From the IMG/VR virus record IMGVR_UViG_2690316318_000025, positions 1 to 10,796 of that record: DNA of 10,796 nt. One strand, given 5' to 3'. Made by a program: the position numbers and the translations under genes. Source of the stretch: a virus. Taxonomy: Duplodnaviria; Heunggongvirae; Uroviricota; Caudoviricetes. Positions 459 through 2,339 of this stretch are shown in pieces. The notes beneath the pieces were generated by a model. It worked only from the letters and a program-made list of their open reading frames with translations. It was not told where the DNA came from and searched no databases. Positions within the stretch are counted from its first letter, which is position 1; each line of letters starts with the position of its first letter.

Positions 459-1277
459 TCACCCCCTGAATCCTGCCGGGATCTGGCTGTAGTCCACGTT
501 GTCGTAACTGGCTTTGAAGTACGGGTCCTCGCGTCTGGCTGCAGATACCGCAGGAACTTCCCAGGATTCTTCGAAATGACGATCCGGACCAAAGAACGTG
601 ACAGCCTGTTTCACAAATTGTGTGCCGCTGTTACCCATCGCAGATACCCAGCCCGCGTAGCGTTTCACACCTTCCAGCATGGTTTCGGGGTTTACCCCCT
701 CATTCAAACGGGCTTTCCAGGCTTTGAAGGCTGCAGATTTTGAATTGCCACCAGCACGTTTGGGATATACCAGCCATGCCTGCTCAAACTCCGGAGAGTA
801 TTCCGGTCGGTTTGAACGAACTCGCACGGACTCATCAACTGATGCACCAACAGCTATTGGTTCATTGACTGGTTCTTTGACTGGTTCAAAAGAGTGACTG
901 GTTCTGGGTGAATCTCCTGCACTACCCCCTGGTGCAACTCCTGCACTACCTGGTGAATTTGCTGCACCAGATAGTGAATTATTTGCACTACCCCCTAGTG
1001 AATCTCCTGCACCATCCAGATGAAGGAGATAGATATTACTTGAGTTACCTTTTTCACCTTTCCGGGTGACTTTTTTTACCAGCCCGGACTCACAAAGGGC
1101 CGCAATATGATTCATCACAGAACGTTTGCTAATCTCGCACTGGTCAGCAATATGCTGGTAGCTGGGCCAGCACTCACCCTGATCGCTGGCATTATCAGCC
1201 AGCTTGATCAGAACCAGTTTTCGCAATGGATTACCCACTCGAATTTTCATCGCTTTAACCATCAGCTCCATACTCAT
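459..1277 (-). CDS. Phage replication initiation protein (lambda O-like; N-terminal winged-helix/HTH domain, Gly/Ser/Ala-rich linker, C-terminal domain), 272 aa
   Basis: ORF 459..1277 (-). ATG at 1277..1275 with GGAGGT RBS 6 nt upstream. The N-terminal segment LRKLVLIKLADNASDQGECWPSYQHIADQCEISKRSVMNHIAALCESGLV is typical of the HTH domain of phage replication initiators. A low-complexity linker (GAGDSLGGSANNSLSGAANSPGSAGVAPGGSAGDSP) is encoded by DNA direct repeats. Start overlaps the stop of the upstream 78-aa gene (ATGA). Confidence 0.8.
   Translation of the reverse strand: MSMELMVKAMKIRVGNPLRKLVLIKLADNASDQGECWPSYQHIADQCEISKRSVMNHIAALCESGLVKKVTRKGEKGNSSNIYLLHLDGAGDSLGGSANNSLSGAANSPGSAGVAPGGSAGDSPRTSHSFEPVKEPVNEPIAVGASVDESVRVRSNRPEYSPEFEQAWLVYPKRAGGNSKSAAFKAWKARLNEGVNPETMLEGVKRYAGWVSAMGNSGTQFVKQAVTFFGPDRHFEESWEVPAVSAARREDPYFKASYDNVDYSQIPAGFRG
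858..1017. repeat. Iteron-like direct repeats inside the replication-initiator gene (candidate origin of replication)
   Basis: Three copies of TGACTGGTTC (866-875, 878-887, 895-904), followed by about five imperfect 18-22 bp direct repeats of the form RGTGAAT(C/T)TCCTGCAC(T/C)ACC between 908 and 1017. They lie in the interdomain linker of the O-like gene, the position of the iterons in phage lambda ori. Confidence 0.45.
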
Positions 1278-1510
1278 GCTGCACCTCCGAGATGCTTCAT
1301 GTTTTTTCCGGAGCGAAAGGCTATAAGCGGCATACTGACGCGGTAATTACGGCCCAGCGGTTCACAAACCACCTTCTGACATTCACGGTCAACCAGGCTA
1401 ACACGTAGAACATGCCCTGCAGGCGTGGTGTACCACTGCCCAACTGTAGGAATTGATGTTTTTTTACGCTGAAGTAAACGGCGAATATTGAGGCTCAACA
1501 GATTAAGCAT
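1274..1510 (-). CDS. Hypothetical small phage protein, 78 aa
   Basis: ORF 1274..1510 (-). ATG at 1510..1508 with GGAGGG RBS about 7 nt upstream. Its start overlaps the upstream gene by 8 nt and its stop overlaps the downstream O-like start (ATGA). No family recognised with confidence. Confidence 0.6.
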   Translation of the reverse strand: MLNLLSLNIRRLLQRKKTSIPTVGQWYTTPAGHVLRVSLVDRECQKVVCEPLGRNYRVSMPLIAFRSGKNMKHLGGAA

Positions 1511-2339
1511 GACGATGCCCTCCGCTGATATTCAGGAGACGGTGAATATGAAAATTAGCCTTATCCGCCAGACGAATACGTTCAGCCTGCAAGTTAAGAA
1601 GGGTTTCTACCAAAACCTGATGCGCCTGCGGATCCGAAAGAGTTACCTTGCGCAGAGCACGTAGTGCAGTTGTTACATAACTGAGTTTATGTAAGTCTTC
1701 ATCATTCAGACGAGTGAGGGCTGGGACAGTAGCCATGATGGCAGCCTCCTTGATCGGTGAAATACTTCCACCACCGGAAACGCCAATTTCGCTGGTGGTG
1801 AACTGAACGGGGTTGGCGTAACCGGTGATCAAGGAAACCGGCGCATCTTTCGATGCCCCCGCCCAGCCCACCATAACTTTGATGTGAGCAAATGCGGACG
1901 ATAAAAAAGACGCTGGCGCGTCATATATCGCCTTGATCAATTCCAGGACGCCAATCCCGGCACCCGCTTTATAAGGTGCCTGAACAGTGTAACGTCCCGG
2001 AATGGCAGAATCAATGTGCTGGTGGTCCTTCACACTCAACAAAATCACGCCTGAATTTCCACAAAGGACTAAAGCACTCATGCGGGTAGTCTTTGCGAAG
2101 ATAGATAACGCGCTGTGTTTCTGGCTCCCAACGAATAACATGAACATAAAGTCCTCTTCCGTCACGAAACCAGCGGTTAAGTTCCTGCACAACTCGCCCC
2201 CCACAGTCAGGTAAAGTTCTCTGTGGTTACTTACAGCCAGGTGATTTGGTAATCTGCATTCATGCCGTAACAACAGGTGTTCAGCGACACTGACCACCAG
2301 CTGTTGCGACAAACGGTTATTTGCCGTTAAACTGTTCAT
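1503..2339 (-). CDS. Hypothetical protein, 278 aa, function unknown (contains Gly-rich loops)
   Basis: ORF 1503..2339 (-). ATG at 2339..2337 with GGAGAA RBS upstream; ATGA overlap with the stop of the YdaT-like gene. Protein shows alternating hydrophobic strands and Gly-rich motifs (LVLCGNSGV, YKAGAGIGVLELIKAI, GVSGGGS) suggesting an alpha/beta nucleotide- or phosphate-binding fold, but no family could be assigned from sequence alone. Confidence 0.7.
   Translation of the reverse strand: MNSLTANNRLSQQLVVSVAEHLLLRHECRLPNHLAVSNHRELYLTVGGELCRNLTAGFVTEEDFMFMLFVGSQKHSALSIFAKTTRMSALVLCGNSGVILLSVKDHQHIDSAIPGRYTVQAPYKAGAGIGVLELIKAIYDAPASFLSSAFAHIKVMVGWAGASKDAPVSLITGYANPVQFTTSEIGVSGGGSISPIKEAAIMATVPALTRLNDEDLHKLSYVTTALRALRKVTLSDPQAHQVLVETLLNLQAERIRLADKANFHIHRLLNISGGHRHA

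Follow-up and report, generated by a model that had tools for sequence, protein, structure and literature searches.

The window analysed here is a 10,796-bp stretch of DNA (IMG/VR virus record IMGVR_UViG_2690316318_000025, positions 1 to 10,796) that comprises the immunity and early region of an Escherichia coli prophage of the Shigella phage SfV type, a lambdoid phage; over the probe, it matched a RefSeq E. coli chromosome with 100% identity. On the minus strand, a Cro/YdaS-like gene is followed by ymfL, which encodes a CII-like regulator, by open reading frames (ORFs) of 278 and 78 amino acids (aa), by the gene for an O-like replication initiator, and by a PerC-like gene. An original prediction, made from the sequence alone, had singled out the 278-aa and 78-aa ORFs as two unrecognised genes within the early-right operon. 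Our analysis indicates that bp 1274 to 2339 is likely to be a P4-type, P1 immI-like antisense-RNA immunity module placed in the early-right operon of this SfV-like lambdoid prophage, followed by a gene for a small barrel protein. The evidence includes two RNA elements inside the 278-aa ORF and the way in which they co-vary with their target sites between alleles.

RNA elements inside the 278-aa ORF

Two full-length matches, both on the minus strand and both inside the 278-aa ORF, were obtained when the window was scanned with Rfam. The first is an isrK-like leader RNA and the second an antisense RNA of the C4/P4-CI type; their scores and positions, together with those of the other features, are collected in Table 1. 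The leader ends in an intrinsic terminator (stem at bp 1922 to 1909, U6 at bp 1908 to 1903), a hairpin that was also found by a terminator scan. Upstream of this terminator the leader contains two target segments for C4, b1 (bp 1954 to 1948) and a1 (bp 1939 to 1931). In C4 itself, the loop of hairpin 2 forms a' (CCUUGAUCA, bp 1834 to 1826), and the single-stranded segment after it forms b' (ACGCCAA, bp 1819 to 1813). A second pair of target segments, b2 and a2, lies downstream of C4, where a2 overlaps the Shine-Dalgarno (SD) sequence AAGGAGG (bp 1751 to 1745) of a 77-aa ORF that is nested in frame at the end of the 278-aa ORF and begins at ATG 1736.

Pairing was counted on an alignment of 11 alleles (alignment A3). 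For the internal structure of C4, 96.6% of the alignment cells were paired, as against 38-45% with slid partners; eight compensatory pairs were found, and none of 500 shuffles reached the covariation score. Where a1 and b1 face a' and b', 97.7% of cells were paired, both partners having changed in 12 of the 16 pairs, and the covariation score was 0.84 compared with 0.22 in shuffles; a' and a2 were paired in 94.9% of cells, both sides having changed in seven of nine pairs. The b'-b2 pairing was scored by duplex folding, as a 3-nt indel in the alignment upsets a column-wise count, and a perfect 7-bp duplex was obtained in 11 of 11 alleles, which between them carry four different sequences. Cognate duplexes were approximately 10 kcal/mol more stable than non-cognate ones. 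Among 38 distinct aligned sequences there were at least nine different a' and four different b' segments, each matched by changes in both targets. The leader, C4 and the downstream sites co-vary three ways across at least nine specificity alleles. The SfV reference sequence (L003/L075) has a G-to-C change within b2 at the equivalent of bp 1784 (UUGCCGU for UUGGCGU), so that one of the seven pairs between b' and b2 is lost.

The leader and C4 RNAs were found as a pair in ST64B, Stx1_499, phiP27, a Citrobacter braakii prophage and P4 as well. With the same Rfam models the pair was not found in the e14, SfII and Klebsiella-phage loci, which are without an Ash ORF, the name under which the 278-aa ORF is annotated. 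A putative internal promoter precedes the leader. Its -35 element overlaps the stop codon of an overlapping gene, DUF4222, that is described below, and its -10 element ends 7 nt before the start of the isrK model. Conservation among alleles starts at the putative -35 element even where the DNA upstream differs, as in phiP27 and C. braakii.

The nested 77-aa ORF had a ratio of nonsynonymous to synonymous polymorphism (pN/pS) of 0.17, and 10 of its 17 variable sites fell at the third codon position. A boundary between mosaic cassettes lies just after its start, and sister phages carry Rha-type cassettes after the shared residues IMAT. By analogy of position, the 77-aa ORF is presumed to be the equivalent of P4 kil and P1 icd and the product that is regulated; it would be either a small host-directed protein of the kil/icd-like kind or an anti-repressor. 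Homology to Icd/Kil was considered and ruled out, since the 77-aa product does not match NF033153, whereas P4 Kil matches this family with an E value of 1.6e-21.

Both ORFs of the original prediction lie where it had placed them, between the CII-like gene and the O-like initiator within the early-right operon, and all three of the stop/start overlaps that it described were confirmed by reading the sequence. The TGA stop of ymfL overlaps the ATG of the 278-aa ORF (ATGA, bp 2339 to 2336), the 278-aa stop and the 78-aa start share 8 nt (bp 1510 to 1503, ATGCTTAA), and the 78-aa stop overlaps the start of the O-like gene (ATGA, bp 1277 to 1274). Overlaps of this kind allow translational coupling, and judged by them the ORFs may be co-translated with the early genes, as had been proposed. 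The two ORFs are less unfamiliar than had been thought. The 278-aa ORF has approximately 99.6% protein identity to SfV orf37, which is annotated as 'immunity region' in the SfV record, and matches Pfam Phage_ASH and several PHROGs; the 78-aa ORF is a member of phrog_1153, although it does lack a Pfam or NCBIfam family, and its homologues are all named 'hypothetical'. The SfV record shows the same order (cro, orf36 which is ymfL, orf37, orf38, replication protein), with only proteins annotated and neither RNA elements nor DUF4222. A check of conservation across related prophages found the region containing the pair, at a probe coverage of at least 80%, in 523 of 5426 complete E. coli genomes. 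Relatives of the region are also present in Stx-converting, Shigella and Salmonella phages, and the 278-aa ORF is retained at full length in hundreds of database entries, so that the two ORFs did not arise by chance.

Table 1. Position of genes, reading frames and RNA elements in the window
Feature	Position (bp)	Strand	Evidence or description
ymfL, CII-like regulator	2336..2899	-	Pfam Phage_CP76, E 8.5e-15; NCBIfam YmfL (NF041471), E 4.7e-50; RefSeq annotation (start at 2887 in the annotation pipeline's model)
278-aa read-through ORF, ATG start ('Ash family protein', SfV orf37)	1503..2339	-	Counterpart of P4 eta; overlies all elements of the module
YmfM-like N-terminal leader of the long ORF, residues 1-49 (similarity to about residue 97)	2191..2339	-	BLASTP
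59-aa DUF4222 gene (PF13973), GTG start, -1 frame within the long ORF	2011..2190	-	Pfam, 51.1 bits (cut-off 27); annotated by the RefSeq pipeline
Putative internal sigma-70 promoter	1986..2014	-	-35 TTGATT at 2014-2009, 17-nt spacer, -10 TACACT at 1991-1986, +1 at G1979
isrK-like leader RNA (P4 'seqA' region)	1903..1979	-	Rfam RF01394, 64.2 bits (gathering score 50), E 3.4e-12, model positions 1-77 of 77
C4/P4-CI-type antisense RNA (clan CL00128)	1791..1878	-	Rfam RF01695, 82.3 bits (gathering score 45), E 2.1e-15, model positions 1-87 of 87
Downstream C4 target (P4 'seqC', P1 a2b2)	1745..1786	-	b2 UUGGCGU at 1786-1780; a2 GAUCAAGG at 1755-1748
Nested in-frame 77-aa ORF, start M202 in KEAAIMAT	1503..1736	-	Strong SD sequence 8 nt upstream of the ATG
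78-aa gene, ATG start (SfV orf38, phrog_1153)	1274..1510	-	Overlaps the start of the O-like gene (ATGA)
O-like replication initiator	459..1277	-	HTH_36 and DnaD_N; phrog_270, E 6.9e-88

The Ash stretch, DUF4222 and the long frame

The 278-aa ORF matches Pfam Phage_ASH (PF10554) with 67.8 bits, well above the cut-off of 26, over residues 117-210. These residues correspond to bp 1991 to 1710 and so span exactly the isrK-like leader, C4 and the next 80 nt. Among the 11 alleles, variable sites in this stretch were spread over the three codon positions (49 of 81, 52 of 81 and 46 of 81 at positions 1, 2 and 3), and by this test no purifying selection at the peptide level was seen. The residues that do vary are those that encode the specificity determinants of the RNAs, and their variation tracks RNA pairing. 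The frame itself is intact: it contained no stop codon in any of 16 representatives, while the other frames contained up to seven, and the length of the region was 243, 246 or 249 nt only, so that indels occur in multiples of three. The long frame was open in every allele examined.

The Ash family has been connected with P4 in a different way. PF10554 served as the marker for epsilon in a published survey of P4-like satellites, which equates Ash with epsilon (PMC8628076). In the P4 sequence (L125), PF10554 matches the eta ORF (bp 8168 to 8812), and epsilon (bp 7888 to 8175) belongs to PF25738; the 278-aa ORF of the window showed no significant similarity to P4 epsilon. The identification of Ash as the P4 epsilon anti-repressor was ruled out on these grounds, and since PF10554 matches eta and not epsilon, the 'epsilon' matches of that survey may track the immunity RNA region.

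A further gene, encoding a 59-aa protein of the DUF4222 family, is hidden within the front part of the long ORF in the -1 frame. It has its own start codon, preceded by a G-rich, purine-rich SD-like run. Selection on this region was measured in 37 genomes from many enterobacterial genera and in several phages; a first sample of close relatives had been picked by similarity to DUF4222 and was biased, and it was replaced by the cross-genus sample and by a sample picked through the other frame. Over the stretch that both share, purifying selection was evident for DUF4222 (pN/pS 0.18-0.22), whereas the long ORF gave values (1.5-1.7) equal to those of the unused third frame. Structure prediction was applied to the two barrel proteins of the locus, DUF4222 (59 aa) and the 78-aa protein, and for DUF4222 the AlphaFold2 model had a predicted local distance difference test (pLDDT) score of 86. 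Because its frame is under purifying selection, and because it has its own start codon and SD-like motifs, DUF4222 is a real gene.

Two other explanations of the DUF4222 frame were rejected. It is not a spurious shadow ORF of the long gene, since the frame is under purifying selection, has its own start and SD sequence, and encodes a protein with a confidently predicted fold. A programmed -1 frameshift that would fuse the YmfM-like N-terminus of the long ORF to DUF4222 was ruled out by an in-frame stop codon 1 to 9 codons upstream of the DUF4222 start, and also by phage Stx1_499, in which DUF4222 has its own ATG and there is no YmfM-like part upstream.

The long frame was open across DUF4222 in 39 of 39 distinct sequences, whereas random synonymous recoding keeps it open in only about 5% of cases. 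At the codons where a stop could arise in the long frame (Leu, Val or Ile before a codon beginning with A), only stop-avoiding synonyms were used: CTT or CTC at one site, GTT or GTC at two sites, and a single ATT. Leucine outside these codons of DUF4222 is mostly encoded by CTG. The conservation of the open frame in every sequence and the exclusive use of stop-avoiding codons indicate that the long frame has been held open over DUF4222 without constraint on its peptide. Across the DUF4222 overlap and the RNA module alike, the long frame is preserved and the peptide is not.

The part of the long ORF that precedes DUF4222 resembles YmfM. Residues 1-97 gave BLASTP matches to an Enterobacter YmfM-like ORF (E 1e-15) and to YmfM of E. 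coli K-12 (E 3e-9, 32% identity), a similarity that stems partly from DNA conserved for DUF4222. Within the SfV lineage, the 49 codons before the overlap had six, nine and eight variable sites at codon positions 1, 2 and 3, which points to weak constraint, and judged by its sequence the YmfM-like part of the window ORF looks degenerate. In e14 and SfII, and at the majority of the other loci, the annotated ymfM (108-114 aa) occupies the open frame, and upstream of the DUF4222 overlap the ymfM frame had a pN/pS of 0.36, compared with 1.1-1.2 in the other frames. Like the window ORF, e14 ymfM follows ymfL, starts with MNSLT at an ATGA overlap and contains DUF4222 in another frame, and this MNSLT start is conserved across genera. 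The two differ in that the e14 frame, as at these other loci, stops 20 nt before the DUF4222 stop with no RNA module after it, whereas the window frame runs on into the module.

The ymfM gene of e14 has been identified as SfiC, an SOS-inducible inhibitor of cell division, and division-inhibitor activity is known for e14 ymfM only (bioRxiv 10.1101/2020.11.19.390815). The likeness to e14 permits no inference that the YmfM-like part of the window ORF has such an activity. In K-12, the e14 ymfM region (bp 4823 to 5181 of the e14 locus L002, equivalent to bp 2011 to 2339 of the window) contains a conserved 59-aa DUF4222 ORF in the other frame (L002 bp 5002 to 5181), which has a TTG start preceded by AAGGAG and is the one that purifying selection acts on where the two overlap. 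As the annotated e14 ymfM ORF extends to bp 5161, cloning it would also bring in 53 of the 59 DUF4222 codons. As such a clone carries most of DUF4222, the product responsible for filamentation, ymfM or DUF4222, is not separated by it.

A more far-reaching proposal, to which we give somewhat less than even odds, is that Phage_ASH is not a protein domain but the conceptual translation of the isrK-C4 module, the long ORF being kept only as a track for ribosomes by which operon transcripts that start at an upstream promoter escape antisense- and Rho-dependent shut-off. Were this true, one lambdoid DNA stretch would be used in three ways, as YmfM frame, as DUF4222 frame and as RNA, and the 'ymfM' division-inhibitor phenotype of e14 might need reassigning between two overlapping frames.

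Comparison with known systems and a proposed mechanism

The order seqA-CI-seqC in P4, and a1b1-c4-a2b2 in P1 and P7, is a described arrangement (PMC3632133, PMC12197685). IsrK and C4 have been recognised as the equivalents of seqA and CI, and some lambdoid prophages are known to carry such systems (Barquist et al., PMC3632133). P4 offers a close parallel to the module of the window. Both Rfam matches of P4 fall inside the ORF at bp 8168 to 8812, which is eta (ORF199) by its MMM start and its length, and the last 65 residues of this ORF, from MATTLTP, are Kil, the match to NF033153. The order and strand are the same as in the window: an isrK-like leader with b1 and a1, a C4-family RNA with a' and b', and b2 and a2 over the SD sequence of an in-frame nested ORF, all within one PF10554 ORF that is coupled to the upstream gene. 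The nested start motif is QEAAIMAT in P4 and KEAAIMAT in the window. The target region before kil has an identical arrangement, down to ...AGGAGGCUGCCAUCAUGGCU; P4 shows this layout with pairing sequences of its own, ending in ...UUCACAGGAGGCUGCCAUCAUGGCU before kil. The putative internal promoter of the window would be the counterpart of P4 PLE and of PisrK. The two modules differ in several respects. That of the window belongs to a lambdoid early-right operon, where it separates the CII-like gene from the O-like initiator, and that of P4 to the left operon of a satellite; the long ORF of the window has a YmfM-like front and DUF4222 in another frame; leader and C4 are 25 nt apart in the window and 108 nt apart in P4; and the nested product is Icd-like in P4 but not in the window. 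P4 eta, which is coupled to the gene before it, is reported to prevent CI-dependent termination when it is translated from the upstream promoter (Forti et al. 1999, via PMC10111431).

The immI regions of P1 and P7 (c4, icd and ant) and the anti-immunity system of N15, all three compared here from the literature, have an RNA of the same family, RF01695, and the same logic, in which a processed antisense RNA acts at the ribosome-binding site (RBS) of the first downstream gene and loop alleles set the specificity (PMC12197685, PMC3632133); c4 blocks the ant mRNA at its RBS (PMC12197685). In contrast to these phages, the window has no ant or icd homologue after the module, and its RNA element is embedded in an ORF that is transcribed from pR and translated. 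The Rha-type, anti-repressor-like cassettes of the sister alleles fit the bipartite-immunity logic of P1, P7, N15 and Gifsy-1. The isrK-orf45-anrP region of Gifsy-1 in Salmonella shares with the window an RF01394 leader with a leaky intrinsic terminator, and a short ORF that is reached by read-through and coupled to the effector after it (PMC4825925). In Gifsy-1, read-through of the IsrK terminator is followed by translational coupling to the anti-repressor, and the ORF after IsrK is conserved in its nucleotides and not in its peptide (PMC4825925). The Gifsy-1 module, however, has only its own promoter and regulates an anti-repressor, and the published model makes IsrK an activator in trans, whereas the best-supported interaction in the window is the covariation of C4 with its targets, and replication genes come after the presumed effector, a 77-aa protein.

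A mechanism can be proposed by analogy with P4 eta/kil, P1 c4-icd-ant and Gifsy-1 isrK-orf45-anrP. In the lysogen, pR would be repressed, and a constitutive internal promoter with its +1 at bp 1979 would produce the leader, and also C4 RNA when the terminator is read through. C4 would pair with a2 and b2 and block translation of the nested ORF, and through polarity this block would keep the 78-aa gene and the O-like gene silent from the internal promoter. C4 would likewise be active in trans against infecting phages that carry its own allele. Upon induction, transcripts from pR would be translated without a break, first through ymfL and then, by way of the ATGA overlap, through the 278-aa frame; ribosomes crossing the leader, C4, a2 and b2 would keep the RNA pairings and Rho from acting, and the replication genes would be expressed. 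The 278-aa 'protein' is probably, by the same analogy, mainly a ribosome track that lets pR transcripts escape the switch, and on this reading the Pfam Ash domain is largely the translation of an RNA module.

Several points weigh against this interpretation. The internal promoter is putative, agreeing with the consensus at 8 of 12 positions and missed by a consensus scan, and its +1 (bp 1979) was placed where the Rfam model begins. Because the pairings were first identified in the sequence of the window, the proportions of paired cells are inflated, but the counts of pairs changed on both sides are not, and whole-segment duplex energies for a2 and b2 do not always place the cognate partner first. 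The coding signal of the 77-aa ORF is based on 17 variable sites only, and its product has no match in Pfam, NCBIfam or the Icd-like family NF033153. The anti-immunity logic of P1, P7 and N15 suits the Rha-type sister alleles better than it does the 77-aa allele. The phage already has a CI repressor, and what the module gains it is unexplained if pR transcripts escape C4. Finally, an unbroken frame with in-frame indels only is the pattern of a genuine protein as well; P4 Eta is known to be translated (PMC10111431), and the Ash segment may have a low-specificity or disordered protein function.

The last of these points lead to the alternative that survives best, which we nevertheless hold to be unlikely: that the 278-aa ORF encodes a genuine 'Bro network'/Ash regulatory protein, such as an anti-repressor or a DNA-binding regulator, with which the RNAs merely overlap. 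The strength of the PF10554 match, the label 'transcriptional regulator' that PHROGs give to relatives, and the continuation of the frame into a Rha domain in sister phages would all agree with such a protein. The Ash stretch, however, shows no excess of changes at third positions, and its variable residues co-vary as RNA pairs; over DUF4222 the frame evolves as non-coding DNA, and its N-terminal 49 codons are weakly constrained. Moreover, no relative was found in the PDB, and the Rha or 77-aa cassette has its own SD sequence and ATG at the cassette boundary.

The module interpretation was also set against the annotation in RefSeq, where models of the same DNA by the Prokaryotic Genome Annotation Pipeline (PGAP) differ. 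Some records have a 278-aa 'ash family protein', while the 100% identical record has DUF4222 (59 aa) and a 181-aa 'ash' from GTG 2048; the isrK and C4 RNAs are annotated in neither type. We regard it as improbable, more so than a genuine Ash regulator, that the latter model is right, with bp 2191 to 2335 non-coding, DUF4222 separate and the long ORF an accident of missing stops. DUF4222 is clearly real, the stop of e14 ymfM aligns approximately at GTG 2048, and the Ash ORF of phiP27 starts at the core, all of which agree with that model. It is at odds with the overlap of ATG 2339 and the ymfL stop, with the MNSLT start shared across genera, and with an open frame over DUF4222 that is far more regular than recoding would leave it. 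A 181-aa 'ash' would in any case still be mostly RNA module, and many other RefSeq records call the 278-aa form.

The suggestion that the 278-aa ORF encodes an alpha/beta enzyme that binds nucleotides or phosphate and serves replication or anti-defence, a suggestion that drew only on Gly-rich motifs flanked by hydrophobic residues in the translation, can hardly be upheld: no P-loop, Rossmann or other such match was obtained in Pfam, NCBIfam or PDB sequences, and no selection at the protein level was seen on the stretch. Profile searches likewise gave no match of the 278-aa protein to a replication-protein family. The motifs are indeed present, at residues 93-98, 125-130 and 186-192, but they are not marks of a nucleotide-binding fold. 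AGAGIG (bp 1967 to 1950) results from reading the isrK-like hairpins and the b1 target as codons, GVSGGGS (bp 1784 to 1764) from reading the b2 target region in this way, and CGNSGV (bp 2063 to 2046) lies in a stretch constrained by the overlapping DUF4222 frame. All three are by-products of other coding.

The 78-aa protein, neighbouring genes and significance

The 78-aa protein is a real gene product, for which structure prediction gives an N-terminal helix and a Tudor/KOW-like beta-barrel core. It is probably a distant paralogue of DUF4222. The similarity between the two is weak but in the same register (BLASTP E 0.036, PHROG cross-match E 0.008, hhalign E 6e-4), and two of eight relatives of the 78-aa protein matched Pfam DUF4222 with an E value of 0.0037. 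As DUF4222 overlaps the start of the O gene in e14-type phages and the 78-aa gene does so here, a barrel protein is always the immediate upstream partner of O, and the 78-aa protein may be an accessory to O. A mosaic boundary was observed inside the 78-aa gene at about residue 23, and the N-terminus (approximately window bp 1440 to 1510) travels with the upstream cassette: next to the 77-aa cassette it reads MLNxL..LQRKKTSIPTV and next to Rha-type cassettes MIRNIFKRFTNQ..CPRP, and both versions have the same barrel core. With at least three constrained-looking protein genes (DUF4222, 59 aa; the nested ORF, 77 aa; and the 78-aa gene), two RNA elements and the long frame that overlies most of them, the locus therefore does not consist of two genes, and the original count was wrong.

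The early-left arm, on the plus strand at bp 3222 to 8950, is like K-12 CPS-53 (yfdP, yfdQ, yfdR), and this resemblance makes the prophage a mosaic of e14-like immunity and CPS-53-like early-left genes. The CPS-53-like genes are followed by a PAPS-reductase-family gene, and by Ead/Ea22-like, DUF551, 3'-5' exonuclease and PrtN-like genes. At bp 9838 to 9910 there is a strong hairpin followed by a U-run (AAAACCCGCCUUCAGGCGGGUUUUUU), for which the only Rfam matches were below threshold (rnk leader, RNAI, P9, sroH). Placed downstream of the PrtN-like gene, the hairpin has the appearance of an intrinsic terminator that may work in both directions. On the minus strand at bp 9824 to 10796, the identical RefSeq record has a hypothetical protein and a Panacea-domain protein, adjoining a fragment of a tRNA-dihydrouridine synthase gene. 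These genes may be toxin-antitoxin-like or defence cargo at the end of the prophage.

The essentials of the system are of a known kind, in that the RNA families are curated, the nesting of kil in eta is published for P4, and lambdoid cases have been noted by Barquist et al. What is new is that SfV-type phages have the module in the interval from the CII-like gene to O, that the 'Ash family protein' is a composite, with evidence that the Pfam domain tracks RNA and not protein, that the alleles form a series with three-way covariation, and that the overlap of DUF4222 and ymfM is conserved. Several problems of annotation are brought to light, namely a Pfam 'domain' that tracks RNA, inconsistent PGAP models, a missed overlapping DUF4222 gene, and the use of PF10554 as a marker for P4 epsilon, and a caveat is raised as to which of the overlapping frames of e14 ymfM causes SOS filamentation. 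On the interpretation favoured here, a widespread pair of 'Ash family' and 'hypothetical' genes is explained as an RNA-based second layer of immunity directly before the replication genes. The at least nine natural orthogonal antisense/target specificities would be useful in predicting cross-immunity between prophages, including Stx phages, whose induction drives toxin production.

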